From Candidatus Pacearchaeota archaeon (GTDB taxonomy: Archaea; Nanobdellota; Nanobdellia; Pacearchaeales; GW2011-AR1): DNA of 64,000 nucleotides. The stretch spans positions 144 to 64,143 of the forward strand of contig JAGVWU010000001.1 of the NCBI GenBank assembly GCA_018304145.1, written 5' to 3'. Under the pieces are notes generated by a model, which saw only the letters and a list, made by a program, of their open reading frames with translations, did not search any database and was not told the origin of the DNA. Of the stretch, positions 36,408 to 59,463 are shown in pieces. Position numbers and translations under genes: made by a program. Each line of letters opens with the position of its first letter. Position 1 is the stretch's first letter.

Positions 36408-36863
36408 TTGGAGTATAATAATATGGTAATTGAAAAACTCGAATTAAAATTTACAAAATATGAAATTGCAAGAATTTTAGGAGCTAGAAGTCTGCAATTA
36501 GCAATGGATGCTCCAATCCTTTTAAAATTAACAAAAGAAGAGGAAGAAGAATTAAATTATGATACCTTAAAAATAGCTGAAAAAGAGCTTGAGGCAGGTG
36601 TCCTTCCAATCACTGTAAAAAGGCCTTTACCTAAAAAATCAGAAAAAATAGTTAAAAAACTATCTGAAAAAGAAATAAAAGAAAAACTAGAAAAACAAGC
36701 TGAAGAAGAAAAAAAGCAAATGGAAGAGGAAAAAGAAGGGGTAAAAAATGAAGAAAAAGAGGAAAAAGAAATTACAGAAGAAGGGGAAATAATGGAAATA
36801 GCCAACCCCGAAGACGAAGCATTTTCAGAAAGTGAGAGTGAAAGTGAAGAAGAAATTGTTTAG
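36408..36863 (+). CDS. rpoK: RNA polymerase subunit Rpo6/RpoK with long K/E-rich acidic C-terminal extension
   Basis: KFTKYEIARILGARSLQLAMDAPILL matches the Rpo6/RPB6 core (TKYE.ARI.GARALQ). About 85 extra residues of KE-rich and acidic tail follow. Confidence 0.65.
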   Translation: MEYNNMVIEKLELKFTKYEIARILGARSLQLAMDAPILLKLTKEEEEELNYDTLKIAEKELEAGVLPITVKRPLPKKSEKIVKKLSEKEIKEKLEKQAEEEKKQMEEEKEGVKNEEKEEKEITEEGEIMEIANPEDEAFSESESESEEEIV

Positions 36864-36895
36864 TTCTTAGAATATAATTTATTCTGTTAAAATAT

Positions 36896-36925
36896 TTGTG
36901 GGGGGGTATTAATCCTTAGGATTAA
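36896..36925. repeat. TTGTGGGGGGGTA + 17-bp perfect palindrome TTAATCCTTAGGATTAA (copy A, putative recombination site)
   Basis: Palindrome at 36909-36925, preceded by a G7 run. The same palindrome recurs at 37894-37910. Confidence 0.6.
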
Positions 36926-36988
36926 GTTAGCTACATAAACCGAATAACTATAAGCTATTTTAGTTCAGGTTACGAATGGAGCGGTGAA

Positions 36989-37777
36989 CTAAACAGCTGG
37001 AAGATGAAGATAAACCTCTGCAGATCTGCTAGGAGTTTGTTTAAGTGGGATTACAAATCTTCTATCTTGCAATCCTAAATCTTCACTAGCCTTAAGAAGA
37101 ATATCGGGATTTGAATAACGTGGAACTATTCTACAAACTGGATGATCATGTTCACCTATAATTGATATTGATTGAGATAAAATTCCATGATTATTTTTCA
37201 GTTCATCTTGAAATTTACTGCAATATTGAGAATGACCTATATGTCCTGCTCCGCAATAAACTAATATTTTTGAAGATTGGTTAGTTTGTATTCTGGCTAG
37301 TAATCGTGCCCAAGCTTTATTTCTAACTTCTGGAGTTTCTTCAACATTGTCTAAATCTAATGCTATGACTTTCATCCCTGCGGATTTTGCAGCATCAATC
37401 ATTCCCAAATATAAATCTGGAAAGTTTTCGCCAAGCCGTGAGAATTCTTTTTGATGATAAGCCTTAATCTCATCAGGATTATCGCCTACACTGCAGTATC
37501 TGTCTATTGCTGGTTGCATTGATAATGATAACATTTCAGTTGCAAAATGTGTAATACCAAGACCCCAAAATTTGCTCATATTTTGTATGACTTCTTTTTT
37601 GGCTGCTTCACTGCCATGATACTCTCCAAAAAGAATTAGGGGTGCTAATCTAAAAAGAGGAGCATAATCTGCATCCTTTGGATTTGTTCTTTGAAGATAA
37701 GACAAAACTTCATCATAATTCGAATTAGAGTCATCAAATTCTTCTGTTCCAAATAGATTGTCTATAGTGTTGCTCAT
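36989..37777 (-). CDS. TraB/PrgY/GumN (TIKI-superfamily) protein
   Basis: LFGEYHGSEA (GxxH) near the N-terminus and VYCGAGHIGH (GAGH) near the C-terminus match the two conserved boxes of the TraB/PrgY pheromone-shutdown family. GC content is slightly higher than in neighbouring genes. Flanked by the two palindrome copies. Start placed at MSNTIDNLF. Confidence 0.45.
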   Translation of the reverse strand: MSNTIDNLFGTEEFDDSNSNYDEVLSYLQRTNPKDADYAPLFRLAPLILFGEYHGSEAAKKEVIQNMSKFWGLGITHFATEMLSLSMQPAIDRYCSVGDNPDEIKAYHQKEFSRLGENFPDLYLGMIDAAKSAGMKVIALDLDNVEETPEVRNKAWARLLARIQTNQSSKILVYCGAGHIGHSQYCSKFQDELKNNHGILSQSISIIGEHDHPVCRIVPRYSNPDILLKASEDLGLQDRRFVIPLKQTPSRSAEVYLHLPAV

Positions 37778-37884
37778 ATAAAAGGTTAAAATTAGAAGTT
37801 TATAAATCTTACTATATGTTACTACTACCTGATAACACATAATAATCCATTGCACAACAAATTTTCTAATATCTTGAGGAAAAA

Positions 37885-37928
37885 GTTGTGGACTTAATCC
37901 TTAGGATTAACTTATCGTGGGGGCGTTT
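37885..37928. repeat. TTGTGGAC + palindrome TTAATCCTTAGGATTAA (copy B) + TCGTGGGGGCGTTT (left copy of 14-bp direct repeat)
   Basis: Palindrome at 37894-37910 and 14-mer at 37915-37928, both read directly. Lies immediately upstream of the integrase gene. Confidence 0.6.
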
Positions 37929-37990
37929 GAGATTTGTTTGACACTCCTAACTAAGGCGGTTTTTAATAACAAAACCTCCTTATTTAAGGA

Positions 37991-39175
37991 ATGGAAGACA
38001 TACATAATTATAAACGAAGACTTGAAAGAACTCTCGAAAGGGTAAATAAACTTGATCTCTATCCAGAAGATAAGGAATTAATTTATAGATTCAAAGATCT
38101 TTGTATCTGTCAAAATATAAGTTATGGAAAATTAGATGCTTATCTATTCTATACAATAAAACTTACAAATTTCCTTCAAAAACCAATAAAGGAAGCCAAT
38201 AAAGAGGACATAATGAATGTTATAGCAAAACTTAATGAAACAAATTATAGTGAGCAAACCAAAAAATGTTTTAAAGTTTTACTTAAAAAATTATACAAAT
38301 ATATTAGAGGTATAGAAGGTAAAGGAGAATATCCTGAAGAGGTAAAATGGATGTCAACTACAATTTCTAGAAATCATCAAAAACTGCCTGATGAACTTAT
38401 TAATGAAAACGAAATAGAAAGTATTATTAGGGCTGCTCAAAATACGAGAGATAAAGCTTTAATTTCTATTCTTGCAGAATCAGGTTGCAGAGTTTCTGAA
38501 ATAGGTCTCATGAAAATAAAAAATGTTTCATTTGAAGAATATGGGACAAGAATAGCAGTTTCAGGAAAAACGGGATCAAGAAAAATATTAGTGATAAATA
38601 GTACACCTTATTTACAAGAGTGGATTAATCAACATCCATTAAATAACAATTCTGATTCTTTTCTATGGTACAATCCATTAAATAGCAAATATCTAAGTTA
38701 TACCCGAATTACCAGTATTCTAAAAACCGCAGCAAAAAGAGCAGGAATAAAGAAGAGAATTCATCCTCATTTGTTAAGGCATAGCAGAGCAACGAAAATG
38801 GCTACGGTAATGAGTGAAGCTTCCATGAAGCAATATTTTGGATGGACTCAGGGATCTTCAATGGCAGGAGTTTATGTTCATTTATCTGGAAAAGATACTG
38901 ATGATGCCATACTCAAAGCAAATGGAATTGAAATAACAAAAAAAGAAATGATTATAACAAAAATGAAACCTATTATTTGCAATAGATGTAAAACATCAAA
39001 CGAAGCAACAAATAGATTCTGTAAAATATGCGGTCTTCCTTTAACAAAGGAGATTGCAGAAGAAACAATAAAAGAAGATTCTGAAAAGAAAAAGTTTGAG
39101 GATATATTAGAAATTGCTTTATCGGATAAAAAAGTATTAGAAATGATTAAAGAGAAGATGAAAGTAATTTTATAG
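37991..39175 (+). CDS. tyrosine recombinase / integrase (XerC/D-phage integrase family) with C-terminal Zn ribbon
   Basis: Box I ESGCRVSEI (catalytic Arg), box II HPHLLRHSRATKMA (H-x-x-R-H) and catalytic Tyr in GVYVHL. C-terminal CNRCK...CKICG ribbon. Confidence 0.8.
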   Translation: MEDIHNYKRRLERTLERVNKLDLYPEDKELIYRFKDLCICQNISYGKLDAYLFYTIKLTNFLQKPIKEANKEDIMNVIAKLNETNYSEQTKKCFKVLLKKLYKYIRGIEGKGEYPEEVKWMSTTISRNHQKLPDELINENEIESIIRAAQNTRDKALISILAESGCRVSEIGLMKIKNVSFEEYGTRIAVSGKTGSRKILVINSTPYLQEWINQHPLNNNSDSFLWYNPLNSKYLSYTRITSILKTAAKRAGIKKRIHPHLLRHSRATKMATVMSEASMKQYFGWTQGSSMAGVYVHLSGKDTDDAILKANGIEITKKEMIITKMKPIICNRCKTSNEATNRFCKICGLPLTKEIAEETIKEDSEKKKFEDILEIALSDKKVLEMIKEKMKVIL

Positions 39176-40517
39176 GATTAAAATTTCCAAATTTTTCAAA
39201 AAATTCAGAAATAATCTTCTTAGCCTGATTATCTGTAAATTTTGATCTTGGGAAAAGCCCTGCCAAATCACCCCGATAATCTATTTCTAAAACAATTGGA
39301 TCTTCACATAATTTTGTGGTATCTCTTATTTTTATAAAATAAATATCAGTTATCTGCTTTTCTCTTTCCATTTTTGACCTTTCGATTATGCGCTTTATTT
39401 CGGGTCTTCTAAAAGAACCTCTTTGACCAAAGAGAATATTTCGGCTAATAATTTCTCTAATCTCCTCGCCTTTAACTGTTATAGGTTTGTAAATTAAAGG
39501 ATCATGATCAAAAACGCATATATCCCTGAGAAATTTTTTTGCTATAATTTTCATTTTCCCTCTAAAATCTATTCTATGAATTAACGTGGGATTTATTTCT
39601 CCAAATAGAATTTTGGCTAGTCTTTTTATCTGTCTTTCTTCTGTTGAAAATATAGTTATTGGAATATAATTTTTTCCTGATTTTTGTTCTGCCCATATTT
39701 CTATTTTATTAAAAGGTGGATAAATAATTTTATAAGGAAATCCTTTAAAGTTTAGTTTTATCACATTATTTTCTTTTTTTGGAATATAGTTAAGAATTAA
39801 TTTATTTTCTTCTTTTGTTATTTCTTCCATGTTATCTCTTATATATGGAAAATTTTTAATATTACTTAAAATGTGATCTAAAGAAGTATTTATAATTCTA
39901 AATTGAGATGCACAAACTATTAAGGGAAATGGAGCCTTTCTAACAATTGCTTTAAATTCAGCTTTATCACCAACTTGATTTAATATATCTTTTTTTAATG
40001 ATTTCATTTGATCAAGCATTTTTTTAAATCCCTGATTTTGTTGATCAGTTAATAAATCAATTTTTTGGTTTGTACTAACACATAATTCAGTAATTTTAGA
40101 TTGATATTCTTCCTCTATTTTAGCCCAGAGATGAGGATTAAGCCTTATTTTTTCTTTAAAAATATGATAAAACTCTGAGACTATTTTTTTTACATCTAAG
40201 TCCTTTTCTGTGGTGGTCTTTATATTTTCTCCAACAAGAGTTATACGAGTTAATTTATCAACACGAGGAATTTTAGAGTCCAAAACTAAATCTTTAACAG
40301 TTGGATTTTTTAGAAATCTTTTTATAAAATTCTTTGATTTAGGATATTTTTTAATCAATTCATTTAGAGTTTCCTCATAAATTTTTTCAAAGTTAGGTCT
40401 TAAAGCTTTATCAATTTTATTCTTAAAGAAATCATAAGCTACATTGGTTATAATTCCCAGAGCAGGATCTGTCAATCCCACAATTGCTAATTGGGCTGTT
40501 TTCTTAATGTCAACCAT
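39147..40517 (-). CDS. hypothetical protein
   Basis: 456-aa ORF, convergent with the integrase and overlapping its 3' end by about 29 nt. No motif recognised. Confidence 0.4.
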   Translation of the reverse strand: MVDIKKTAQLAIVGLTDPALGIITNVAYDFFKNKIDKALRPNFEKIYEETLNELIKKYPKSKNFIKRFLKNPTVKDLVLDSKIPRVDKLTRITLVGENIKTTTEKDLDVKKIVSEFYHIFKEKIRLNPHLWAKIEEEYQSKITELCVSTNQKIDLLTDQQNQGFKKMLDQMKSLKKDILNQVGDKAEFKAIVRKAPFPLIVCASQFRIINTSLDHILSNIKNFPYIRDNMEEITKEENKLILNYIPKKENNVIKLNFKGFPYKIIYPPFNKIEIWAEQKSGKNYIPITIFSTEERQIKRLAKILFGEINPTLIHRIDFRGKMKIIAKKFLRDICVFDHDPLIYKPITVKGEEIREIISRNILFGQRGSFRRPEIKRIIERSKMEREKQITDIYFIKIRDTTKLCEDPIVLEIDYRGDLAGLFPRSKFTDNQAKKIISEFFEKFGNFNPIKLLSSSL

Positions 40518-41047: not shown

Positions 41048-41773
41048 ATGTCAAATCAAATAGAAACTTTAGATGCAAAACTACTAGGATTGAACAATTA
41101 CGAATTATCAGCTTATAAGTCATTGATAAAACTTGGTAAGAGCTCTGCGCCAGAGATAAGTAAAATTAGTACTGTTCCATATGGAAGAATTTACGATGTA
41201 TTGTATTCGCTTGAAGCTAAGGGGTATATTAAAACGATAACTGGTAAAACAAAATATTTCATTGCATCAGGTCCTAAAGAAATAATAAAACTAATTCAAG
41301 ATAAAAAGAAAGAGTTAGAGAATCTTGAAACAGAATTCGAAAAACTTGAACAAATATATGATACTAAAGAAGATGAACCAGTAATTATTGTTAAGGGTAA
41401 TAGAAATTTTCATAGAATTATCAAAGAAAAGCCTGAAGCAAAAAAATATCGTTATACAATAAAATATAATTCTGTAATAAATCCTGAATGGATTAAAGGT
41501 TATAAGAGTAAGTTAAGGAAAAAAATTGATATCAAGAATCTAGTAAGATATGATGAAAAAACAAAGAAAAATGTAATGAAATGGAAAAATGTTCTCCCTG
41601 AAATTAAAGCAATTGAAAATGAGGGAGTTGTGATGTCTTTAATTGACGATCATTATGTTATGATTGGATTGATTACTTCTAATTGTACTATTGTAATAAA
41701 AAATGAAGCACTTTGCAAGATTCTGAAAAAAATGTATCTTGCAACTTACGAAAAAGCAGAGGTGATAAAGTAA
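41048..41773 (+). CDS. TrmB-like winged-helix transcriptional regulator
   Basis: YELSAYKSLIKLGKSSAPEISKISTVPYGRIYDVLYSLEAKGYI is a TrmB-type HTH. First gene of a tightly coupled five-gene plus-strand operon. Confidence 0.6.
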   Translation: MSNQIETLDAKLLGLNNYELSAYKSLIKLGKSSAPEISKISTVPYGRIYDVLYSLEAKGYIKTITGKTKYFIASGPKEIIKLIQDKKKELENLETEFEKLEQIYDTKEDEPVIIVKGNRNFHRIIKEKPEAKKYRYTIKYNSVINPEWIKGYKSKLRKKIDIKNLVRYDEKTKKNVMKWKNVLPEIKAIENEGVVMSLIDDHYVMIGLITSNCTIVIKNEALCKILKKMYLATYEKAEVIK

Positions 41774-41774
41774 A

Positions 41775-42947
41775 ATGCAACAAAAACTTAAACAAAAACA
41801 ATCGAATCAAAATATTTCATGGAATAAATTAAGTTCAATTTCAAAAGTTTATCTTTTAGATATCTATAGAGATATTTTAGCAAATGAACAAATAAAAAAA
41901 TGCCAACTTTTGAATAATAGAGATGTTTATTTTAAAGATTCTAATATGACTTTACAAGGAACTTCTGTTTCAGGACTAAGCTCTCCGGCTATTTTAGATA
42001 GACCAATAATTTTTGATAAAAATAATTCTATCAAACAGAATCTTGATAAATTTACTTCAATTTTAGCAGAATGTTATTTAAAAAATATGAAAAATGATTT
42101 GAAAGTTTTCAAAAAAGCATTTCCTGATGATATTGAGCAATTCAGGAAAATTGGTACTTATTGGGTTGGACATATAAGTGCTAAAATGTTAGGATTAATT
42201 TTCAAGTTAGATATCGATATGGATAAACTTGATCCAAACAAATACAGAATCAATGTTCCATTTTATCAACTGATGAACAATTCTAAATATAGCAAATTAA
42301 AGAAACTATACTTAGAAAAAACTAATAATCATTCAATTAAATTTATATCAAAAAAAAGTTTTATTTTATCTGATTCAACAGGAGCAAGAGGAATTGTTAA
42401 TGACGTTAATTCAAAAGAAAGAAGTAGAATAAGAATTCTTGTTCCATCAAATGTTAATAATATTCTTTCAATAATTTCTAAATTAACTGTTAAGAAAATT
42501 AATTTATTAAAAAGCAAATATAAAGAAACTGAAAATTTAAATCTTAAATCATTGGCTTTAATCTGTAGTGATACAGATTCTCCAGAAGGAATTTATAGAG
42601 AATTGGAATGGCGTCCAATTGAGGGTTATCCCTTAACTCCTGGCTGTTTTATTCTAGGTTCAACAGGATCTTTGGATTTATATTGTTTACAAGCAAAATA
42701 TATTTACAGATTATCATTAGCTGCTCAAGAAGAAATGAAAAATAGTATAACCAGTAACATTAAAGGAAAATATACGCCTGTAGTTTGGTTCGGAGCATTA
42801 AGTCTTCACGCATTAACTGAGCATAAAATAGTTGACACTGAAAAATTATCAGAACTAAGATATGATGGAGATTATGATCCTAAAAAAGAGTTTTTACATT
42901 GGATAAATAGAGAAGGTAAAGAGTATCTTAAAGGAGATTTAAAATGA
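41775..42947 (+). CDS. hypothetical protein
   Basis: 390-aa ORF that starts 2 nt after the regulator stop, with an ATGA overlap onto the next gene. No motif recognised. Confidence 0.45.
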   Translation: MQQKLKQKQSNQNISWNKLSSISKVYLLDIYRDILANEQIKKCQLLNNRDVYFKDSNMTLQGTSVSGLSSPAILDRPIIFDKNNSIKQNLDKFTSILAECYLKNMKNDLKVFKKAFPDDIEQFRKIGTYWVGHISAKMLGLIFKLDIDMDKLDPNKYRINVPFYQLMNNSKYSKLKKLYLEKTNNHSIKFISKKSFILSDSTGARGIVNDVNSKERSRIRILVPSNVNNILSIISKLTVKKINLLKSKYKETENLNLKSLALICSDTDSPEGIYRELEWRPIEGYPLTPGCFILGSTGSLDLYCLQAKYIYRLSLAAQEEMKNSITSNIKGKYTPVVWFGALSLHALTEHKIVDTEKLSELRYDGDYDPKKEFLHWINREGKEYLKGDLK

Positions 42948-44372: not shown

Positions 44373-45446
44373 ATGCCATCGGAATCTATTGAACATCTAG
44401 AATTGAAGCGAAAAGCGAGAGAAATCTTAACTAATAAATATGGATTTAAAGATAATGAAATAACTGAAGAATATCCTCATATTTTGTCTAATGGTGTAAG
44501 AATTGAAATTGACGTTTTCGCAAAGAATAGTAATGGATTAAAAGCGATTGAATGTGGAAGTGTTAGTAAGTTAAAATTAATTACTATGAAAAATGAATTC
44601 GGAAAAGAAAATGTTATTCATATTCCATACTCTGAAGCGGTGTTAAAATCATTATTTTATGGAGATAAAGATTTATCTTCAAAAAAACAATTACTAAAAG
44701 CAGTTTTTAATGAAGAAATTTATGAAAAATTAAAGGAAGATAAAGACTATGGGTTTCTAGAATATAATGATAAAAATAAGGATTATTTTTATATTGGAAG
44801 ATTTGAATCTTGGATGGCTTTTCCAACAAATAGAAGTATTATTGATGGCAGAAAATTAATGTATGAAATTAACTTTACTATTTCTTATATTGATAAAGAA
44901 ACCTATGAAATAACTATAAATGCTGAAACAAATGATTCTGTAAGTCAATATATTGAATTAACTGATAATACTAAAGACAAAATATTTGATGAATTAAAAA
45001 AATTACCTTCAAATTTTTTTACTCAAGATGGAATAAAATTCAAAACTGAAAAGAGAAGACTTCCACCTTTACCGAGAAATTGGGAGGTTACAGAACCTAC
45101 CCCCTGCAATCAACTAACAAAGGAAAAATTAATAGAAATAGAGAATAGATTAAAGTGGTATTTAAGCGAAGGTGGAAAATTTGAAGAATATCCAATACTT
45201 TCATTGGTAAGAATAAATGTTAGAAAAAAAGATTTAGCAAAAACCTTACTTATATTAAAGCCCATTTATTTACTATCATTTAAGTTTAAAACAAAAAAAG
45301 AAGAAAAAGCCGTTCATGATAGTTTGGAATCATTAAAACAGAGAAGGAATGCAATATTAAGTGGATTTATTCCAGAAGCAACACAAGAAGAATATGAAGA
45401 CCTTGAAGTTCAAATAGCAAAGATGCAAAAAGAATTAGATGAATAG
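44373..45446 (+). CDS. hypothetical protein (N-terminal region possibly restriction-endonuclease-like)
   Basis: 357-aa ORF. The N-terminal ~80 aa contain RIEIDVFAK ... AIECGS, which weakly resembles a PD-(D/E)xK core. Not secure. Confidence 0.4.
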   Translation: MPSESIEHLELKRKAREILTNKYGFKDNEITEEYPHILSNGVRIEIDVFAKNSNGLKAIECGSVSKLKLITMKNEFGKENVIHIPYSEAVLKSLFYGDKDLSSKKQLLKAVFNEEIYEKLKEDKDYGFLEYNDKNKDYFYIGRFESWMAFPTNRSIIDGRKLMYEINFTISYIDKETYEITINAETNDSVSQYIELTDNTKDKIFDELKKLPSNFFTQDGIKFKTEKRRLPPLPRNWEVTEPTPCNQLTKEKLIEIENRLKWYLSEGGKFEEYPILSLVRINVRKKDLAKTLLILKPIYLLSFKFKTKKEEKAVHDSLESLKQRRNAILSGFIPEATQEEYEDLEVQIAKMQKELDE

Positions 45447-46662: not shown

Positions 46663-47772
46663 TTATTTATTATCTGTTGCTGTAAGAAATTTTTTTAATG
46701 TTTCTCCTCTTTCTTCGGCTTTTTTAGAAAGAACTTCGGATAAAGCATTATTTTTCAATTGAGGTATTGCGATTTTTATTTTTTCTCCCATTTCAACTCT
46801 AATCATTTTATTTATAATGTCTTTTTCTATCATTGGTGCTTTACTATACATCGATATAATAGAATATTTGTTTTGTAATATATTGCCTCTATCTTCGTTG
46901 CATTTGATAAATTTACAGTTTAATCCATAATTTATATAATTTTTATAAACTGTTTCTTTTTCAACTAAATGCCAATTCATTAAATCTATGTTAAATAAAT
47001 CATTCCACTCTTCATAATTAAAATCTTTTTTCATTGAAAGTGGTATACTCATCTCTATAGATTTCAGATATTTACTCGAAGAAATTAAGAAATTAAGTGG
47101 GTTGTTATAACTTCTACCCCTTTCTTTTAATTCTTTAAGATATGCTCTTAAATCTTTGTCTTTATGACCAAAAAATGTATCATCATCTCCTTTTATTATT
47201 TCAGGTGTTATGAATATTTTATCATCCTTCTCTTTTAATGCCCAAAGAAATAAATTATATTTTATCTCTTTTGCCTTTGAAGTTATTTCAGTTACACAAG
47301 GTTTTTGAGTTGCTAAAACAAATTCTTTATCTATAATATCTCCAACTAAACTTTTATAAAAATCTAATATTCTCATTCTTCTACCCTCGATAGTATTAGT
47401 AATTTCTATATTCTCAACAACTTCTTTTGAATATTCTTTTAAACCATTCATAATAGAAATTGCATTATGTGCTGATACACCTTCTTTTACACTTATAAGA
47501 ATTATATTTTTATTTCCATATAATAAAATATCAAAATTCTTTTCTTTGAAAAAAAATAAGGGTTCTGTCCTAACAAATTTAATAGGAGAATCATTTGAAT
47601 TAAAAGCAAAAATAATTATACCAATATCATTTATTTCACTACGATTAACTGCTATCTGACTATGAATGCTTCCCTCATATTCTTTTGATAATTTAGCTCT
47701 CATATCATCAACTTTCTTTTTAAGAATAATCTTCATTTTCTTACTGTTCTCGGAATTTATTTTGGAACTCAT
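46663..47772 (-). CDS. hypothetical protein
   Basis: 369-aa ORF tightly coupled to its neighbours (2-nt spacing on both sides). No motif recognised. Confidence 0.45.
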   Translation of the reverse strand: MSSKINSENSKKMKIILKKKVDDMRAKLSKEYEGSIHSQIAVNRSEINDIGIIIFAFNSNDSPIKFVRTEPLFFFKEKNFDILLYGNKNIILISVKEGVSAHNAISIMNGLKEYSKEVVENIEITNTIEGRRMRILDFYKSLVGDIIDKEFVLATQKPCVTEITSKAKEIKYNLFLWALKEKDDKIFITPEIIKGDDDTFFGHKDKDLRAYLKELKERGRSYNNPLNFLISSSKYLKSIEMSIPLSMKKDFNYEEWNDLFNIDLMNWHLVEKETVYKNYINYGLNCKFIKCNEDRGNILQNKYSIISMYSKAPMIEKDIINKMIRVEMGEKIKIAIPQLKNNALSEVLSKKAEERGETLKKFLTATDNK

Positions 47773-47773
47773 T

Positions 47774-48829
47774 TTAGTATATTATCTTTGTCAATTGGTC
47801 TATTTTTTCAGTAAGAAATCTGTGAAATCTTACTATAGAAACAAAACTTGATTTATATTTTGGGATAATTGTAAATCTCTTTCCGTCTGAAGTCATTGAA
47901 AATATATTTCCTTTCTGTTCATCAACAACATTTGAACTAAAAATAACCGAACCCTCTTCTAATTTAGTATTGTAAACACTAAAATTATTTTTTTCCATCA
48001 CTGTTAAAAACTCACGAAATTCTTCAAATGAAATGTCTTTTTCTATTTCAAAAATCACCTGTTTAGTTTCAAGAATTTCTCTACCATTTTCTTTTTTAAT
48101 ATCCATTTTTGCACTTTCCATCTCTTGATTATCTTTTATGACCATTTCTATAAATCTTTCAATAATATTATTCAAAAAATCCTCTACTTTTCCATAATAT
48201 AATGTATAATACCCTCTCTTGTTTATTTTGAATTTAAATGAATTTGGAATAACAAACTCGATAGCTTGTGGGAGAACACCATATACAAATCTCATTTCTT
48301 CAAAAGCTGTTTTGGCATCATCTCCTGTATATTCTATATCTCTATAGAACATAGGTCTCTTACATTCCTGTTTACCCATGTCCACTTTTTTACCGTGGAA
48401 GTAAGTCATATAACTTCCTTCAATCTTTAATATAATATCCTTCAAGTTATCAAAATAAGAGGGAGGTAGCCATAAATAGTATACATTTGGAATATTGTCT
48501 ATAATTCCAAATAGAGTTCTATACAAATCACTAATTCCATTAAAAGTGAAGATAAAATAAATTTCTTTATATTTTGAATGCCTTAATAAGTAATAATCTA
48601 CTTCACGGTTCTCTTTATGTAACTGATATATTTTTGAAAAATGAATTATTTCTCCAAAGGAGGAATTATCTATTATAAATTCATTTTCTTCTAATTTCTC
48701 ATAAATTGAATCTAATTCATCATTTAAAAAAATAGTAATTATTTGTAAATTTTTATTATTATCCTTTAAAGTATCATTACAAAGACCACAGAATGAACTT
48801 GCAGAATATTTTTGAATTGGTAATTTCAT
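47774..48829 (-). CDS. hypothetical protein
   Basis: 351-aa ORF, first gene after hsdR (100-bp gap). No motif recognised. Confidence 0.45.
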   Translation of the reverse strand: MKLPIQKYSASSFCGLCNDTLKDNNKNLQIITIFLNDELDSIYEKLEENEFIIDNSSFGEIIHFSKIYQLHKENREVDYYLLRHSKYKEIYFIFTFNGISDLYRTLFGIIDNIPNVYYLWLPPSYFDNLKDIILKIEGSYMTYFHGKKVDMGKQECKRPMFYRDIEYTGDDAKTAFEEMRFVYGVLPQAIEFVIPNSFKFKINKRGYYTLYYGKVEDFLNNIIERFIEMVIKDNQEMESAKMDIKKENGREILETKQVIFEIEKDISFEEFREFLTVMEKNNFSVYNTKLEEGSVIFSSNVVDEQKGNIFSMTSDGKRFTIIPKYKSSFVSIVRFHRFLTEKIDQLTKIIY

Positions 48830-48929: not shown

Positions 48930-51923
48930 TTACTTTTTATTCAGCCTCTTGTACACTTTATCTAGCATCCAGTCTTTGACAGTTTCTGCAAAATCTTTGT
49001 CATCCATTATTTTCTTAAATATGTCTTGATTTTGCTCCATACGGTCTATAACCTTATTGATAAATACATCTTGAAAACCATATTTAAAGTTCTCAACAGA
49101 ATTTGTTTTTGCTTGTTTTGAAAGTTTTTCGTCAGCAACAAGTTCTTCTTCAATTTGGTCAAAAAATAGTTTATCTGCTTCTGTAAAATCTGTTCCAAAC
49201 CTTTCATTTAAAATCTTAATTATTTCTGAAAGTTTTGCATATTCTTCTTTTTCTTCTCTTACCCCTGCAGTATTAAGTGGTTTTAACCATCCTTCTTTTC
49301 CTTTTTCTAGTGATATACTTCCCTCATTTATTTTTTGAAGTCTGTAATATTCTAATGCAACTTCATCACCAAGTTTAAATCTTTCAGATAAATCTTTTCT
49401 AGGCAGTTTATTTACTAATAATCTTCCATAAGCATAAAACTTTTCTAAATCACTGTCTTGAAAAGGCATAATTTGGGATAAAAAAGAATATACTCTTAAG
49501 AAAACAGTCAACATATGTTTAAATTCCTCTTGTTTTTCTGTTTTATCTATTGCTCTAAATCTTGAAACTGCTGGGTCTATATACGAGTTTAATAATGAAT
49601 GGTCTTTAATTGATTGATATTTTGCTGATTTAAAAAACACTTTACAGAAGTTTTCGACATCTAACTTATCAATAACCCCTCTTTCTTCTATCTTATATTT
49701 TAAGTCATAGAGTTTATTTGGGTCTGTTGTTTCTTCAAGGAGTGTAATCTCATAATAGGGTTGGAAAGCATTAATTATATCTGAATCATCATTTACAAAA
49801 TCTAAAATAAAGGTATCTTCTTTTCCCGGACAAGTCCTATTTAATCTTGATAGAGTTTGAACTGCTTTTATTCCTGATAACTTTTTATCCACATACATAG
49901 TATGCAGAAGTGGTTGGTCATAACCTGTTTGATATTTATCAGCAACTAACAATAATTGGTATTCATTAGTATTAAATTTATCAGGAAGTTCTTTTTCACC
50001 AAACTGATTCATTTTTGGTTCTGTATATTCTTTTCCATCTTTTACTATTCCTGAAAATGCAACAATAGCCTTGATGTCGTTATATTTATTCTTTTTAAGA
50101 TAATCATCAAATTCTCTCTTGTACCTAACTACGTGAAGCCTTGAAGGAGTAATAACCATTGCTTTTGCCTTACCTCCAATTTTTTTCATTGTAACTTGTC
50201 TAAAATGCTCTATCATAACTTCTGTTTTTTGTGCGAGATTATGAGGATGTAAAGCAACAAATCTTGCTATCGCTCTTTTTGCCTTTTTCTTGTTTATTTT
50301 TGGGTCATCTTCGATTTGTTTGGATAATCTAAAGAAAGTTTGGTAGGTTGTATAATTTTTAAGAACATCTATAATGAAACCCTCTTCTATTGCCTGCCTC
50401 ATAGAATATAAATGAAATGGTTCTGGCTTTCCAGTTATTTTGTTTTTAACACCAAAAATTTCAAGGGTTTTTGCTTTTGGTGTTGCAGTAAATCCAAAAA
50501 AACTTAAATTTTTATGCATCCCTCTTGCTTCCATAGATTTTCTTATTTCATCTTCTGTATCTACTTGTTTTTCTAGTTCTGTTGAATCTTTTTTTATTGC
50601 TTCATCAAAATCTTTATAACTCAAGACTTCTTTCATTTTTTTAGATGCCTCTCCACCTTGTGAAGAGTGTACTTCATCTATAATCAGAGCATAATTTCTT
50701 TTTGGAAGTTCACCTATTGTTTCAATAATATAGGGGAATTTCTGTAAGGTTGTTATAATAATTTTTGTTCCAGACTTTAATGCTTCAGATAGTTGTTTGG
50801 AATTTTTATCTATTTTTTCAACTACTCCTTTTTTATGCTCAAACTGATAAATAGTATTTTGAAGTTGTTGGTCTAAAACTAATCTATCAGTAACTACAAT
50901 AATTGAATCAAATACAGGTTTGTCTTTTTTATTGTGCAAACTTGATAATCTATAAGCAAGCCACGCAATAGAATTACTCTTGCCACTTCCTGCTGAATGT
51001 TGAATCAAATAGTTTTTTCCAGTTCCATTTTCTTTTGTATCTGCCTCTAATTTTAGAACACAATCTAATTGATGGTAACGAGGAAAAAGCATTGATTCTT
51101 TTTTTATTGTTTTTCCTTCAATCTTAAATTCTTCAATTTGGATGTGCATAAACCTTCCAACAATATCCATAAAACTATCTCTCTCTAAAATTTCTTCCCA
51201 TAGATAAGAAGTTTTGTAACCTTTGGGATTTGAGGGATTTCCAGCACCATTTTCAAAGCCCTTATTAAATGGCAAGAACTTAACATCTCCTTCAAGTTTT
51301 GTTGTTAAAAAAATATTATCTGTATCAACAGCAAAATGAACTAATGCTCTTTTCTTAAACTGGAATATTAATTCATTGGGGTCGCGATCTTCTTTGAATT
51401 GTCTTTTTGCATTTTCAACATCTTGTCCTGTAAATTGATTTTTTAATTCAATTGTAGCGATAGGCAGTCCATTAATTGAAATCAACATATCAAGAGAATT
51501 TTCATTCTTCAAGCTGTATTTTACCTGTCGTGTCAAGGTCAACTTATTCATCTGATATAATTTTTCTGTCTGGGGATTTAACCCACTCGCAGGTCTAAAA
51601 AAAGCAATCTTAAATCTTACCCCATAATCAATAATTCCATTTCTTAAAACATCAAGTGTACCTCTGCTATCAAGTTCCTTAACTAATCTTTGTAAGAATT
51701 TTGTTTCAACATCTACTCTATGAATACCAGATAGTTTTTTCCATTCATTTGGTTGACTTTCTTTAATAAAAGAAAAAAGAACATTTGTATCCAATGCAAT
51801 TTCTTTATTGAAATCTTTTGCATTTCCTTTAAGAAAACCACCTTTATCTTTACCTGTTAAAAAATCCTCTATAGCTGTTTCAAAAGCTTTTTCATTTGTT
51901 ATTGACACCATCTTTTTATTCAC
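48930..51923 (-). CDS. hsdR: Type I restriction enzyme R subunit
   Basis: SF2 helicase motif I QHSAGSGKSNS and motif II IIDEVH. 997 aa. N-terminal nuclease region. Overlaps the hsdS 3' end. Confidence 0.85.
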   Translation of the reverse strand: MNKKMVSITNEKAFETAIEDFLTGKDKGGFLKGNAKDFNKEIALDTNVLFSFIKESQPNEWKKLSGIHRVDVETKFLQRLVKELDSRGTLDVLRNGIIDYGVRFKIAFFRPASGLNPQTEKLYQMNKLTLTRQVKYSLKNENSLDMLISINGLPIATIELKNQFTGQDVENAKRQFKEDRDPNELIFQFKKRALVHFAVDTDNIFLTTKLEGDVKFLPFNKGFENGAGNPSNPKGYKTSYLWEEILERDSFMDIVGRFMHIQIEEFKIEGKTIKKESMLFPRYHQLDCVLKLEADTKENGTGKNYLIQHSAGSGKSNSIAWLAYRLSSLHNKKDKPVFDSIIVVTDRLVLDQQLQNTIYQFEHKKGVVEKIDKNSKQLSEALKSGTKIIITTLQKFPYIIETIGELPKRNYALIIDEVHSSQGGEASKKMKEVLSYKDFDEAIKKDSTELEKQVDTEDEIRKSMEARGMHKNLSFFGFTATPKAKTLEIFGVKNKITGKPEPFHLYSMRQAIEEGFIIDVLKNYTTYQTFFRLSKQIEDDPKINKKKAKRAIARFVALHPHNLAQKTEVMIEHFRQVTMKKIGGKAKAMVITPSRLHVVRYKREFDDYLKKNKYNDIKAIVAFSGIVKDGKEYTEPKMNQFGEKELPDKFNTNEYQLLLVADKYQTGYDQPLLHTMYVDKKLSGIKAVQTLSRLNRTCPGKEDTFILDFVNDDSDIINAFQPYYEITLLEETTDPNKLYDLKYKIEERGVIDKLDVENFCKVFFKSAKYQSIKDHSLLNSYIDPAVSRFRAIDKTEKQEEFKHMLTVFLRVYSFLSQIMPFQDSDLEKFYAYGRLLVNKLPRKDLSERFKLGDEVALEYYRLQKINEGSISLEKGKEGWLKPLNTAGVREEKEEYAKLSEIIKILNERFGTDFTEADKLFFDQIEEELVADEKLSKQAKTNSVENFKYGFQDVFINKVIDRMEQNQDIFKKIMDDKDFAETVKDWMLDKVYKRLNKK

Positions 51924-53250
51924 TCCTTAAATCAATTTTACCTGTGACTGCCTCGTATATCAATGAAGTCTTATACTCATTTAATAGCTCTATCTCTTTT
52001 TCTATTTTACTAACGGTTTTATCTATTTTAGAGGTTTCGGTTTCAATGTAATATACAATTTGTTGTTGCTCTGGAAGGGGTGGAATAGGAATAAATATCT
52101 CTTTAACATTACTGCTATTTAAATGTGGATGGAGAGCTCCTGTTTGTATAGATTTTAAACTATGAAATCCAAAATTAGAATTTAAAAGAAAGGAAAAGAA
52201 TTTGCTATTAATAGTCTTTTTAGGTGTAATTAAAATAAGTGCGTGGCAATTACAACCTACAAATTCTTCATTTACTACTGCTACTTGACCAATATCCCCA
52301 GTTTGTACAATTAAAATATCATTTTTTTGTAAAATAGACCTTGAATGTTCATTTGACCATTCTTCAGAAACATAATAAGGATGATTGAATATAATTTGAT
52401 TGTTTTTAATATGCAATGATTGTATATATCTTATTCCCTTATCTTTTAGAATGTCTCTCGTTGGACCAACATAACCATTTGTAATTTTATCGCAAATCCT
52501 ACTAATTATTGAAGTTTCCCACTTTTCAGGTATAAATCCAATCCATTCTATTCCTGAATCTTTCATTTTTGCTTTTGTATTAATACCTTTTGTTACAGAA
52601 TTATTAATTAAAGATTGTCTTTTTTCTTTTAATAATTCAATTAATTTTTCTTTTTTAGAAACTAATTTTTCAATAAATAAAGTATATTTATCAAGATATT
52701 TTGATATTATTTCTTGTTCTTTAAGTGGAGGTAATATTACCAAAGCATTTCTAAATTCATCTCTACCCAAAATTTGTCTTGTAGTTCCCTTACAATTAGC
52801 AGAAAAATAAAAAAGAACATTAGGATTATTACACAAATATTTTTTATAAGAATGATTGACTTCATTTTTAAATTCAAATCTTAAAACGTGATAACTAAAT
52901 ACAGTATTGGGTAATTCACAATCAATAACAGCTGATAGTCCAATATCTATTTCTGTTTCAGAACTGGGGGTAAATATTAAATCTCCTTTTTTAACAGGAT
53001 GTTTTTCTTTTTGTTCTTCTGATACAGAAACAACCATATATTCCCTTTTATCATCTAAAACTTTATCCTTATTTCCATAAATATTCATATAATTAATCAT
53101 TTTTACTAACGGTTGATTGGGCAGTGTTTTTTTATCTATACCACTGGATGAAAATTTACCAATATTTCCTAATCTTGTCACATCCCAATCTTCAGGTATT
53201 TTTCCAACCCAATTAATTAAAGAATCCTTGTATTTTGGATATGGTTTCAT
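51916..53250 (-). CDS. hsdS: Type I restriction-modification specificity subunit
   Basis: Two target-recognition halves, each followed by a conserved LPPL(K/P)EQ(E/Q)xI repeat. N-terminal INWVGKIPEDWDV is typical of HsdS. Confidence 0.75.
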   Translation of the reverse strand: MKPYPKYKDSLINWVGKIPEDWDVTRLGNIGKFSSSGIDKKTLPNQPLVKMINYMNIYGNKDKVLDDKREYMVVSVSEEQKEKHPVKKGDLIFTPSSETEIDIGLSAVIDCELPNTVFSYHVLRFEFKNEVNHSYKKYLCNNPNVLFYFSANCKGTTRQILGRDEFRNALVILPPLKEQEIISKYLDKYTLFIEKLVSKKEKLIELLKEKRQSLINNSVTKGINTKAKMKDSGIEWIGFIPEKWETSIISRICDKITNGYVGPTRDILKDKGIRYIQSLHIKNNQIIFNHPYYVSEEWSNEHSRSILQKNDILIVQTGDIGQVAVVNEEFVGCNCHALILITPKKTINSKFFSFLLNSNFGFHSLKSIQTGALHPHLNSSNVKEIFIPIPPLPEQQQIVYYIETETSKIDKTVSKIEKEIELLNEYKTSLIYEAVTGKIDLRSE

Positions 53251-53251
53251 T

Positions 53252-54973
53252 TTATTTAATGATTTCTTTCATCATACCTTCAGTTTGTTTTTCTAATTCT
53301 AAAATATCTTTCTTTATTTGTTCAAGAGTTCTTAAAGGTTTAAATTCGTAGAAATATTTTGTAAAGCTTATTTCATATCCTTTTCTTGTTTTTGTTTCAT
53401 CAATCCAAGCATCAGGATTATAGGGTAAAACCTCTCTTTCGAAATACTTTTTTATATCTTCTTTAAGAGGAACATTTTCTGTATCTCTTAAATCTGAGTC
53501 TGATTTAGGTTTACCATTTTTATCTTTAACGACCTTCCCATTTTCAATCAAAGGTCTTTCAACTGTAATTTGCCAATATCCAAAATCCTCATTATCAAAA
53601 ATCTTACAATATTTATTTTCCTTGAAATCTCCATAGATATTTGTTATTTCTTCAATATGATTTTTTCCAATCTCATTTCTTTTGTTGCCTAAACTTTTTT
53701 TCATCTTATTATAAAAACTAATAGCATTAATCAATTGAACCTTTCCTTTTCTTTCTTTAGGTTTCCTATTTGTAACAATAAAAACATAAGTAAAAATCCC
53801 AGTATTATAGAAAAGTTGGTCAGGCATAGCAATAATTGCTTCAAGCCAGTCATTTTCAATTATCCATTTTCTTATATCACTTTCCCCACTTCCTGCACCA
53901 CCTGAAAATAATGGAGAGCCATTAAAAACAATACCAATTCTTGAACCACTATTTGAAGGTTTCATTTTAGAAATCATATGTTGCAAGAATAATAAAGAGC
54001 CATCACTGATTCTCGGAAGTCCTGCACCAAATCTTCCCTCAAATCCATTTTCTTCATACTCATTTTTAATCTGCTTTTCAACTTTTTTCCATTCAACTCC
54101 GAAAGGTGGATTTGAAAGCATATAATCGAACTTTTCATTTATTAACCCATCATTTGAAAAAGAATTTCCAAGAATAATATTTGACATATTCTGCCCTTTA
54201 ATTAACATATCAGATTTACATATAGCATAAGATTCAGGATTAAGTTCCTGACCAAAAACCTCAAGTCTTGAATCTGGATTAAATTCACGCAAATATTCTT
54301 CTGCAATGGATAACATTCCACCAGTTCCACAGGCAGGGTCATATAGCGTCTTGACAATTCCTTCTTTGGTAAGTATATCTTTATCATCCATAAACAAAAG
54401 ATTAACCATAAGTCTTATTACCTCTCTAGGTGTAAAATGCTCTCCTGCTGTTTCATTAGATAGTTCTGAAAACTTCCTAATCAACTCTTCAAAGATATAA
54501 CCCATCTGAATGTTGTTAACCTTACTGGGATGTAAATCAATTTCAGAAAACTTTTGTATAATCAGGTAAAGCAAGTCTGCCTCATCTAATTTGTTGATGT
54601 GTTCTTCAAATCCAAAGTGTTCTATTATCTCTCTTGCATTATCTGAAAATCCGTTTATGAAATCTTTAAGGTTTGCGGCAATATGTTCAGGGTCGGATTT
54701 AAATTTTTCAAAAGTGAACTTGCTCTTGTTATGAAAGTTTAACCCTGCAATGTTGTTCAATACTGGGTCTATGTTTTGAATTTTCTTTTCTTTTATTTTT
54801 GGAAGATAATCCAAGACCTTTTGTTTGGTTGGTTCAAGAACACAATCCAGCCTTCTTAAAATTGTTAGGGGAAGAATTACTTTGCCATAGTCTGCCTGTT
54901 TATAATCACCTCTTAATAAATCTGCAACACTCCAGATAAAGTTCGCTAAATCATTTACTTTTATTTGTTCCAT
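53252..54973 (-). CDS. hsdM: Type I restriction-modification N6-adenine DNA methyltransferase subunit
   Basis: N-terminal HsdM domain (FIWSVADLLRGDYK), SAM motif I DPACGTGGML and catalytic NPPFG. Start placed at MEQIKVNDL. The upstream ORF start at 55039 is less likely. Confidence 0.85.
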   Translation of the reverse strand: MEQIKVNDLANFIWSVADLLRGDYKQADYGKVILPLTILRRLDCVLEPTKQKVLDYLPKIKEKKIQNIDPVLNNIAGLNFHNKSKFTFEKFKSDPEHIAANLKDFINGFSDNAREIIEHFGFEEHINKLDEADLLYLIIQKFSEIDLHPSKVNNIQMGYIFEELIRKFSELSNETAGEHFTPREVIRLMVNLLFMDDKDILTKEGIVKTLYDPACGTGGMLSIAEEYLREFNPDSRLEVFGQELNPESYAICKSDMLIKGQNMSNIILGNSFSNDGLINEKFDYMLSNPPFGVEWKKVEKQIKNEYEENGFEGRFGAGLPRISDGSLLFLQHMISKMKPSNSGSRIGIVFNGSPLFSGGAGSGESDIRKWIIENDWLEAIIAMPDQLFYNTGIFTYVFIVTNRKPKERKGKVQLINAISFYNKMKKSLGNKRNEIGKNHIEEITNIYGDFKENKYCKIFDNEDFGYWQITVERPLIENGKVVKDKNGKPKSDSDLRDTENVPLKEDIKKYFEREVLPYNPDAWIDETKTRKGYEISFTKYFYEFKPLRTLEQIKKDILELEKQTEGMMKEIIK

Positions 54974-55110
54974 ACCCAAACACCTATTATTATTACTATA
55001 ATAGGTTCTATTTAAAGTTATTTTAGACCATTTAGCCACCTAGTGCAAAGCTTTGCTTCTTATGGCGGCTTTTTTATATTTTTTGTTAATTTTATATTAT
55101 ATAAAATGGA

Positions 55111-58932: not shown

Positions 58933-58933
58933 T

Positions 58934-59263
58934 TTAATTTCCTAAAATCAGCTTAACCACAAAAGGAGCTGCCCAGATAACCATCAGACCTATGATAACA
59001 TACATTACCATATTTTTTGCTTTCTCTCTTTTTCCTGGATCTGATCCACTCATTATATAAGTGATTCCAGCAAACAACAATACTAGACCTGCAATCATTG
59101 TGACTGCATATTTTACAAGGTCGTAAATTGTTTGTAATGGTTTTAGTATTTGGTCAAAATCGCTATTTGATGCAGCTAAAATAAAACTAATCTGAAACAA
59201 AAGCAATACAAATAAAAAACAATAAATCAACAATGCTTTGTTTTTTGGTTTTCCTTGTGCCAT
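58934..59263 (-). CDS. VirB2/TrbC-like pilin-like small membrane protein
   Basis: About 110 aa with an N-terminal signal/TM segment, a mature region and a second hydrophobic helix (MSGSDPGKREKAKNMVMYVIIGLMVIWAAP). This topology matches TrbC/VirB2 pilins. Confidence 0.4.
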   Translation of the reverse strand: MAQGKPKNKALLIYCFLFVLLLFQISFILAASNSDFDQILKPLQTIYDLVKYAVTMIAGLVLLFAGITYIMSGSDPGKREKAKNMVMYVIIGLMVIWAAPFVVKLILGN

Positions 59264-59463
59264 TTTATTACCTCCTGAAATTTTTTCTTTTCTTTGTACT
59301 TGCAACTTAAAACATTAAAGCAAGTCTTGCAAAAGTCTGCTTCATCTGTTCTAAGTTCCTTTCCGCATAAGATGCATTTTTTCATGAAAACTTTATTTTT
59401 GAGAACTTTATATAATACCGAGTGAAACTTTTTGTACAAAATTTTGTACAAAAAATTGTACAA
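59227..59463 (-). CDS. small Zn-ribbon protein (tentative)
   Basis: CILCGKEL...CKTCF four-Cys ribbon in a 78-aa ORF. Overlaps the start of the downstream gene. Confidence 0.25.
   Translation of the reverse strand: MYNFLYKILYKKFHSVLYKVLKNKVFMKKCILCGKELRTDEADFCKTCFNVLSCKYKEKKKFQEVIKWHKENQKTKHC

Follow-up and report, generated by a model that had tools for sequence, protein, structure and literature searches.

The locus described here lies in a 64-kb stretch (the window) of an AT-rich archaeal chromosome of about 29% GC, carried by contig JAGVWU010000001.1 of a Candidatus Pacearchaeota archaeon. In this window, an operon encoding SBDS, Rrp4, Rrp41, Rrp42 and RpoK ends at position 36863 and is followed by a 1-kb segment delimited by two copies of a 17-bp palindrome, TTAATCCTTAGGATTAA, hereafter called PAL. 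The symmetry of this palindrome is 8-1-8, the central T being unpaired. The exact 17-mer occupies 36909-36925 and 37894-37910, as stated by the initial annotation of this region; the window contains no other copy, even when up to two mismatches are allowed. A single open reading frame (ORF) occupies the interval (36989-37855, minus strand; likely ATG at 37777, giving 262 aa), and the gene that comes next encodes a tyrosine integrase, again in agreement with the initial annotation. The motif TTGTGG is found 5' of both palindromes, at 36896, that is 33 nt after the end of the operon, and at 37886. A G-run had been assigned to each copy as well; it exists for copy 1 only (TTGTGGGGGGGTA), whereas copy 2 is preceded by TTGTGGAC and has its G-rich block, TCGTGGGGGCGTTT (37915-28), 4 nt on the 3' side. 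The heptamer GTGGGGG, searched on both strands of the 64 kb, occurs three times, at 36898, 37917 and 61460, always on the plus strand; these positions mark three sites named site0, site1 and site2. The gene between the palindromes had been described as slightly richer in GC, a difference that is weak at best: the 37-38 kb bin has a GC fraction of 0.337, equal to the 0.33-0.34 of the adjoining exosome operon. No tRNA or known RNA was detected in the window by ARAGORN or by Rfam at the gathering threshold, and permissive Rfam scans of 36800-38050 and 61300-61750 returned only noise.

Such a pair of repeats might be taken for a product of chance or of faulty assembly, given the AT-richness of the genome and the existence of two short contigs that break at 36904. 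Dinucleotide shuffling nevertheless gives an expectation of 0.11 copies, the observed count being reached in none of 100 shuffles; the same arrangement is found in 23 contigs of independent assemblies; and the context of the palindrome is conserved in about 50 other genomes. The probability left to this explanation is negligible.

The conservation of this context was established by scanning a genome collection, one genome per species, for the exact 17-mer. At least 119 stretches were returned. In at least 64 of these loci, PAL stands in a fixed context; about 50 assemblies are represented, almost all of which bear the label Woese-, Pace- or Nanoarchaeota (loci and contigs are designated below by L followed by a number). 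Among the matches listed, the 64 loci show two types of flank on either side. To the left of PAL stands T, ending in TCGTGGGGGCA, or E, GAGGAAAAAGTTGGGGAG; to the right stands S, which starts with GTTAGC or ATCTCC followed by TACATAAACCGAATAACT and is conserved over about 115 nt, or Q, GTAATCGTGGGGGCA. T is the 3' end of a tRNA-Arg(GCG) gene, whose end as given by ARAGORN falls exactly at PAL in L016, L044, L080, L100, L065 and L098. T-PAL-S and E-PAL-Q form pairs 0.6-2.7 kb apart that enclose one to three genes in either orientation, so that the left end of an integrated unit, or cassette, reads tRNA 3' end (TCGTGGGGGCA)-PAL-S and the right end E-PAL-GTAA-TCGTGGGGGCA. The cargo is diverse: a HAD hydrolase, several S-adenosylmethionine-dependent methyltransferases, ParE and MazF toxins with their antitoxins, an Asp/Glu racemase, nucleotidyltransferase/HEPN-like pairs and unknowns. 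Two to four cassettes make up the arrays of L030, L040, L054, L071 and L091, and PAL is found on up to three contigs or in up to three copies per metagenome-assembled genome. The palindrome is thus formally present at many unrelated loci, the situation that the initial annotation expected of a generic repeat. Its copies are nonetheless homologous cassette ends, and the archaeal PAL, having only T or E on its left and S or Q on its right, failed the test for a generic dispersed repeat of the repetitive extragenic palindrome (REP) or miniature inverted-repeat transposable element (MITE) kind.

Within S, motifs resembling GTTCAAC/GTTGAAC recur at the fixed offsets +38, +58 and +91, at five times their frequency in shuffled sequence, a pattern that resembles arm-type protein-binding sites. 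A covariation between GTTAGCT/AGCTA and ATCTC/GAGAT in S was considered and dropped, the registers being different and several members lacking it. The remaining PAL stretches (Pelagibacter, Bacteroidota and others) are devoid of the T/E/S/Q context, and these bacterial and viral matches look like chance or unrelated occurrences. A viral origin of PAL was likewise rejected, all eight IMG/VR matches (8/8) being without this context. Many Pelagibacter genomes (L005, L023, L026, L031, L041, L048, L079, L083, L084, L108, L110, L120) share the 17-mer with identical flanks, ...AAAAAACTAGGAGTTAT-PAL-TTAATTTAAAGAGCAG; since none of the archaeal context is found there, this is regarded as an unrelated conserved site. 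Context-bearing cassettes also occur on contigs labelled Candidatus Paceibacterota bacterium, Bacteroidales, Iainarchaeum and Methanosarcinales (L046, which is the 379-kb contig DAOTCN010000002.1, L098, L114 and L116), for which mis-binning or a mix-up between the names Pacearchaeota and Paceibacterota is the likeliest cause. The PAL and S-core strings were found in no paper of the literature searched, an incomplete body of text that also contained no description of such cassettes; the family is therefore, provisionally, an apparently undescribed one.

The window conforms to this family at both ends. Its left end follows the pattern core-PAL-S (36896-36993): the S module, although truncated, aligns with 20 other S modules, holds the near-invariant TACATAAACCGAATAACT at 36932-36949 and retains one GTTGAAC-like repeat, GGTGAAC, at 36983-36989; the cargo ORF extends with its 3' end into the end of the module. 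Its right end follows the pattern E-PAL-4 nt-TCGTGGGGGC and reads GAGGAAAAAGTTGTGGAC-PAL-CTTA-TCGTGGGGGCG (37876-37928). Copy 1 has the form T-PAL-S and copy 2 the form E-PAL-Q; therefore, the segment 36896-37928 is one cassette of the PAL family (Table 1). The architecture of these sequences, their recurrence across genomes, the core that they share, the geometry of the dyads described below and the diversity of the cargo are established here by observation. On this basis, it is probable that the palindromes serve as element-side arms, one for each attachment (att) site of a 1-kb non-autonomous cassette of the tRNA-Arg type, and that a 23.5-kb element resembling an integrative and conjugative element (ICE) later entered its right-hand core.

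Table 1. Features of the cassette and of the ICE-like element in the 64-kb window
Feature	Coordinates	Strand	Basis
site0: degenerate tRNA-Arg 3'-end core (TTGTGGG + GGGGTA), attL-like left junction of the cassette	36896-36908	+	matches TCGTGGGGGCGTTT at 11/14
PAL copy 1, inner left-terminal palindrome of the cassette	36909-36925	+	T-PAL-S context
S module, truncated	36926-36993	+	alignment of 21 S modules
Cargo gene, 262-aa protein of the ChaN/Tiki/EreA superfamily	36989-37777	-	Pfam PF04187 at 1.4e-8
TATA box of the cargo gene, TTTATAAA, upstream of the gene	37799-37806		
E module, GAGGAAAAAGTTGTGGAC, conserved right inner end, includes the second TTGTGG	37876-37893	+	consensus GAGGAAAAAGTTGGGGAG left of PAL, 30+ loci
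PAL copy 2, inner right-terminal palindrome of the cassette	37894-37910	+	E-PAL-Q context
site1 core, TCGTGGGGGCGTTT: right att core (Q) of the cassette and attL of the ICE at once	37915-37928	+	exact 14-mer repeat; dyad center; same core in sister ICE L227
ICE-like element, body, about 23.5 kb	37929-61457		
ICE-side arm, GATTTGTTTGACAC, pairs as an inverted arm with 61435-61448 when attP is reconstructed	37931-37944	+	conserved in L227
Tyrosine integrase of the ICE, 394 aa, C-terminal Zn ribbon	37991-39175	+	Pfam Phage_integrase 9e-24 + zinc ribbon
TrmB regulator	41048-41773		
Type I restriction-modification system, HsdR/S/M	48930-55039		
VirB4/TraC ATPase	55140-58127		
Two VirB2/TrbC-like pilins	58102-59305		
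N4/N6 methyltransferase	59634-60671		
ICE-side arm, GTGTTAAACAAATC, followed by tRNA T-arm-like ACTTGAACC	61435-61448	+	
site2: attR core of the ICE, TCGTGGGGGCGTTT	61458-61471	+	

The position of the recombining core relative to the palindrome can be deduced from two kinds of sites. The first is found where cassette ends are joined or abut one another, and reads E-PAL-GTAA-TCGTGGG-GGCA-PAL-S in L032 and L216/L217, with degenerate versions in L035 and L019. This joined site forms a PAL-4 nt-TCGTGGG-4 nt-PAL dyad with 16/22 matches, whereas shuffled sequences average 10.5 and do not exceed 15. The second is the attP of the ICE-like element. This element is bounded by an exact 14-bp direct repeat of TCGTGGGGGCGTTT (37915-28 and 61458-71), and its integrase gene begins 62 nt after site1. 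When its attP is reconstructed, the best dyad (15/22 matches; 500 shuffles: mean 10.5, maximum 15) is centered on TCGTGGG, the same 7 nt as in the joined cassette site. In the window, this putative 7-bp overlap occupies 37915-37921 and is separated from PAL by the 4 nt CTTA. A sister ICE, in L227/L228, agrees with that of the window in its core and element-side arm, and its integrase is 95% identical; the 116 nt compared are 91% identical, nearly all of them from the core rightward. Across the core, at the equal distance of 4 nt, this sister ICE carries another palindrome, CTTAACCTAAGGTTTAA (PAL2). The core is consequently where the ICE recombines, and the palindrome is part of whatever adjoins the core. 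The initial annotation had seen in the palindrome itself the core site of a recombinase, a view that the dyad centered on the adjacent TCGTGGG and the different palindrome of the sister ICE do not support.

PAL2 is found in equivalent positions of a sister integrase subfamily, likewise at a tRNA-Arg 3' end. Considered as a family (TTAACCTAAGGTTAA and variants), it occupies the same place relative to the TCGTGGGGGC core as PAL in L218-L224 and L227, stands left or right of cores in L029, L043, L075, L088, L102, L070 and L097, and has its own integrase subfamily; PAL and PAL2 units are interleaved in the same arrays.

A version of the initial proposal has nevertheless to be weighed, in which PAL is the crossover site, with a 5-7-5 core (TTAAT-CCTTAGG-ATTAA), and circular E-PAL-S cassettes insert by PAL x PAL recombination into a tRNA-Arg-PAL-GTAATCG... 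platform in the manner of integrons. All four flank combinations exist indeed, as they should for attB, attP, attL and attR sites sharing PAL: among the matches listed, T-PAL-Q is found in L029, L065 and L080, and E-PAL-S in L030, L066, L071, L072 and L111. Moreover, neighboring cassettes of L071 have one PAL in common, and the polarity of the central base is the same for all copies of an array. This scheme, however, leaves Q, the second copy of the tRNA 3' end, without explanation, whereas a TCGTGGG core expects it, and it fails to predict the E-PAL-GTAA-C-PAL-S junctions (C standing for the core) of L032, L216, L035 and L019. A near-palindromic overlap would also leave the orientation of insertion unfixed. 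The symmetric PAL-4-TCGTGGG-4-PAL arrangement and the identical center of the ICE attP favor TCGTGGG, and both the ICE and its sister recombined in the core rather than in PAL. A crossover within PAL is thus unlikely, though it is the strongest of the competing explanations.

The shape of PAL lends itself to two further interpretations. An 8-1-8 perfect palindrome is the classical form of an operator for a dimeric helix-turn-helix protein; the promoters of the cargo gene and of the integrase diverge from either side of copy 2; the ICE (41048-41773), like the neighborhood of other loci, encodes regulators of the TrmB family; and, when the minus strand is read, a T-run within E comes after PAL. 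PAL could accordingly be an operator or an insulating terminator hairpin, conserved for the control of transcription at cassette borders. The distance of 4 nt between PAL and the core is nonetheless fixed in about 60 loci (among the matches listed), whatever the cargo and its orientation. PAL is moreover present at both cassette ends and as a symmetric pair around the core beside integrase genes, and no conserved regulator gene accompanies it. A purely transcriptional role is for these reasons improbable. The other interpretation, raised by the initial annotation, is that of a chromosomal dif-like XerA site, duplicated or captured at the junction. XerA-like recombinases of 275-281 aa are encoded 1-3 kb from PAL in L019 and L058, and XerA is the best NCBIfam model for the window integrase, though far under its cut-off (123 versus 220 bits). 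A Xer/dif site is a single-copy site per replicon made of two arms of about 11 bp and a 6-bp spacer. PAL is multi-copy within genomes, on several contigs and in tandem arrays, and its architecture is 8-1-8 rather than 11-6-11, so that it cannot be equated with dif; it always adjoins a tRNA-Arg 3'-end core and is absent 3' of rpoK in 80 related loci. PAL is not known to have any similarity to the dif arms of Pyrococcus and Sulfolobus. A captured dif site is thus highly improbable.

The relation between the cassette, with its palindromic arms, and the ICE-like element is best appreciated from the content of the latter. Besides the genes of Table 1, a metallophosphatase, a P-loop kinase and a Cas4-like nuclease are encoded in it, while neither a relaxase nor a coupling protein was recognised between 37929 and 61457. 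The best NCBIfam matches of VirB4 and the pilins are ICE families of Mycoplasma and Firmicutes (Mbov_0397, CD1110, Mbov_0395), and four large ORFs (39147-40517, 41775-42947, 44373-45446 and 46663-48829) have no family match. The adjacent integrase belongs to this 23.5-kb element, which is separate from the cassette. A composite left boundary resulting from tandem or sequential integration had been suspected from the start; it is supported in the sense that the 1-kb segment is a separate att-bounded module and that the ICE sits in its right-hand core. To the right of site2, the window continues with GCGTTTATC..., similar to what usually borders Q on its right in other genomes; this fits an insertion of the ICE into a pre-existing cassette end; the alternative is that cassette and ICE arrived together. 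The window integrase has 1300 homologs in Pace-, Woese- and Nanoarchaeota, the top 120 being all at least 50% identical. All the named homologs that were checked adjoin a tRNA, either tRNA-Ser or another one, and a repeat of the 3' end of this tRNA immediately precedes the integrase gene. Upstream of integrases of this type in L211 (9774-10000) and L213 (9638-10000), a tRNA 3' end with TTTTGAAAAAGT is repeated 70-100 nt further on, with only non-coding sequence in between. Each of these pairs has the appearance of an att-att unit that is 'empty' and has been left as a minimal remnant beside an integrated element.

This arrangement recalls the accretion of cis-mobilizable elements (CIMEs) that reportedly takes place beside ICESt1/ICESt3-type ICEs in Streptococcus. 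As in that system, an att-flanked segment devoid of integrase and transfer genes lies in tandem with an ICE and has one att core in common with it, and integration of the ICE into the att site of its neighbor leaves three direct core repeats, here site0, site1 and site2. In the cassette described here, the ChaN-like gene stands alone, without recombination or transfer genes, and site1 is common to the cassette and the ICE. The host, however, is an archaeon of the Pacearchaeota. Unlike a CIME, furthermore, the cassette is not a decayed copy of the ICE but a member of a distinct family with its own ends of about 150 bp (PAL, S and E) and many cargos; it has only the 7-14-bp core in common with the ICE, not the arms, and its left core is degenerate.

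The insertion point itself was compared with 80 Rrp42-RpoK loci from metagenomes (50-80% aa identity), relative to which the window carries an insertion. Downstream of rpoK, PAL, core, ChaN and tRNA-Arg are all missing from these loci and no genes are conserved, which indicates that cassette and ICE represent an insertion at a secondary, non-tRNA site; no exact empty site was found among them, the loci being too divergent to show one. In a distant relative of the host (L199, Rrp42 52% identical), an integrase homolog is present directly 3' of rpoK (4131-4802), a hint that this region may be a recurrent insertion point. In the window, the RpoK (Rpb6) homolog (36408-36863) carries a highly acidic, low-complexity C-terminal tail of about 70 residues (EEKKQMEEEKEG...SESESEEEIV), and its stop codon lies 33 nt from the left core of the cassette. 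The two short contigs mentioned above, L002 (equivalent to window 36904-40390) and L003 (36904-40006), come from the independent assemblies JGI 3300009031 and ENA ERZ5996431. Both begin at 36904, in the G-run of the degenerate left core, and differ from the window at their far ends, L003 terminating in 271 nt of GC-rich foreign sequence. These breaks could mean heterogeneity of the junction in the population, or low-coverage assembly breaks or chimeras.

The initial annotation had attributed the cargo gene to the TraB/PrgY family and viewed its product as a regulator of conjugation, neither of which is borne out. The only Pfam match of the protein is to ChaN/Cofac_haem_bdg (PF04187), at 1.4e-8 and above the gathering score, and TraB_PrgY (PF01963) gave no match even at E<=0.5. 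An identical protein is named 'ChaN family lipoprotein' at NCBI, and the matches to sequences of the PDB are the RRSP domain of MARTX and HopBA1, which are placed in the same fold class of the ChaN/Tiki/EreA/TraB-PrgY superfamily. Only two other clusters of related proteins exist. One of them, 81% identical, is encoded in L231/L232 directly after a different, intron-containing tRNA, and is enclosed by a 16-bp repeat of the 3' end of this tRNA (GGCGGGGCTATAAATT at 933 and 1805), with no PAL, S or E at this element. The nucleotide similarity between the window (36987-37827) and L231, 86%, covers exactly the ORF and about 50 nt of promoter. The ChaN gene is thus cargo in two different att-bounded one-gene elements, which argues against a specific tie to the neighboring conjugation genes, and the L231 element is indeed located far from any such genes. 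The gene travels as free, interchangeable cargo. In L231 (830-1820), as in L232, ARAGORN assigns to the tRNA an implausible 'stop' anticodon, and further upstream the 5' part of this tRNA is present a second time, in incomplete form. These observations indicate that mini-elements at tRNA 3' ends are of several unrelated chassis types in these archaea.

Taking together the cassettes, the joined sites and the ICE, we infer the following order of events, in which cassette mobility, protein binding to PAL, mobilization in trans and the exact position of the crossover are all part of the model. The family would naturally target the 3' end of tRNA-Arg(GCG), and the sequence of an integrated copy is [TCGTGGG-GGCA]-PAL-S...cargo...E-PAL-GTAA-[TCGTGGG-GGCA]. 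A Zn-ribbon tyrosine integrase of about 440 aa, supplied in trans (L098/L216 type), would cut and exchange strands at TCGTGGG, the presumed 7-bp overlap. PAL, PAL2 or the GTGTYAAACAAATC of the ICE would each act as a family-specific element-side arm, PAL and probably also the S repeats being bound by the integrase or by a dimeric accessory protein, and S and E would constitute outer arm regions. Units devoid of integrase would be non-autonomous derivatives or satellites mobilized in trans. In the window, a cassette carrying the ChaN/Tiki gene would have been inserted downstream of rpoK, not at a tRNA; the ICE, with a related integrase but different arms, would then have integrated into the intact tRNA-Arg-like core at the right end of the cassette, thereby generating the 14-bp repeats at 37915 and 61458. 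The model predicts that a circular cassette junction would read ...GAGGAAAAAGTTGTGGAC-PAL-CTTA-T[C/T]GTGGG...-PAL-GTTAGCTACATAAACC, that the cassette-only state following excision of the ICE would read PAL-CTTA-TCGTGGGGGCGTTT-ATCTTAAAAC, and that the empty site would read AAAATATT-T[T/C]GTGGGGGCGTTTATCTTAAAAC.

Candidates for the source of the integrase are found at two independent loci. In L216/L217, the joined site lies directly upstream of a Zn-ribbon integrase gene of about 440 aa, 32-36% identical to the window integrase and followed by primase-like and resolvase genes, and L098 reads tRNA-Arg-PAL-S-integrase. These integrase-bearing relatives are presumably autonomous. The idea that an integrase always stands beside the cassettes was rejected: homologs of the window type are present at only 3/64 PAL loci among the matches listed, two of the three being short XerA-like proteins.

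Several points weigh against the proposed reading of the palindromes as att arms of a mobile cassette. The link to a cognate integrase comes from two independent loci only (L098; L216/L217), and the census of PAL is biased, being limited to the exact 17-mer and to the matches listed. About nine E-PAL-S or T-PAL-Q junctions have no intervening core and need, under this model, an additional PAL x PAL event, that is a secondary deletion, unless PAL is able to recombine as in the competing scheme discussed above. No structure could be demonstrated in S, RNAalifold on 21 S modules giving the PAL hairpin only. As to mobility, all integrase-bearing contigs (23/23) have the same arrangement, no alternative integration site of the ICE was seen among them, and neither a circular junction nor an empty site was recovered. 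The window also departs from the usual situation of the family, in which the cassette adjoins the 3' end of tRNA-Arg(GCG) and 4 nt separate PAL from an intact left core. There is no tRNA upstream of site0, where other genomes carry TCGTGGGGGCA, nor anywhere in the 64 kb, and the left site reads TTGTGGG instead of TCGTGGG, with a 6-nt spacer to PAL instead of 4 nt. On these two grounds, the missing tRNA and the non-consensus left site, the window cassette may never have been mobilized in the proposed way. In view of its degenerate left site and of the identical arrangement of the 23 contigs, it is probably a fixed fossil.

The cassettes have much in common with those of integrons. They are small, mostly one-gene units with conserved, imperfectly palindromic ends and no recombinase of their own; their diverse cargo is rich in toxin-antitoxin and methyltransferase genes; and they form arrays at one anchor. 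Unlike integron cassettes, however, they are anchored at a tRNA-Arg 3' end, possess their own TATA boxes, occur in both orientations and have a copy of the tRNA 3'-end core at each junction; the conserved sequence at their ends is also much longer, extending on one side over about 17+115 nt. The window integrase is not an IntI, the NCBIfam integron-integrase models giving 42.6 and 20.4 bits where the cut-offs stand at 265 and 435, respectively. The R''/L''/L'/R' architecture of attC was not found either: Rfam and RNAalifold show the PAL hairpin only, and the GTTRRRY/RYYYAAC pair is absent on inspection. A study of archaeal integrons (Ghaly et al. 2022, PMC9668308) relied on canonical attC models and makes no mention of tRNA anchoring.

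A further parallel is with tyrosine integrases that target tRNA genes, such as those of the archaeal pNOB8/pTN3 type, which use a 7-nt crossover segment between symmetric arms; such integrases are reportedly the subject of an existing classification. The shared features are the tRNA 3' end as target, short direct repeats that rebuild the tRNA, a dyad at the 7-bp overlap and an integrase gene adjoining attP. The differences reside in the block of identity, which is limited to 11-14 nt (the last 3 nt of the T stem and the acceptor strand), in the PAL and PAL2 arms, which are perfect palindromes, in the C-terminal zinc ribbon of the integrase and in the abundance of integrase-less derivatives.

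For the annotation of this genome, these results imply that the ChaN gene should not be counted in the element of the integrase at 37991, nor taken for a PrgY-type conjugation regulator. More generally, one odd pair of palindromes has led to a defined architecture that can be searched, counted per genome and tested in vitro. It also supplies a concrete attP/attB model, a 7-bp TCGTGGG overlap with palindromic arms 4 nt away, for a very large family of integrases (more than 1300 members) which, to our knowledge, had not been characterised previously. It is conceivable, as a tentative extension, that Pace- and Woesearchaeota own a lineage-wide gene-capture system, analogous but not homologous to integrons. 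In such a system, arrays of 1-3-gene cassettes at tRNA-Arg(GCG), each delimited by a module of about 150 bp (E-PAL-4-TCGTGGG-4-PAL-S), would be shuffled in trans by a Zn-ribbon tyrosine integrase, and the terminal copies of the tRNA 3' end would serve as landing pads for larger elements of the conjugative type, the window being an example. The DPANN archaea have tiny genomes, and their acquisition of accessory genes is little understood. If the cassettes are mobile, they would provide a route for the exchange of toxin-antitoxin, methyltransferase and hydrolase genes among Nanoarchaeota, and the stacking of integrative elements at one site would be explained, because each cassette regenerates a tRNA-3'-end landing pad.

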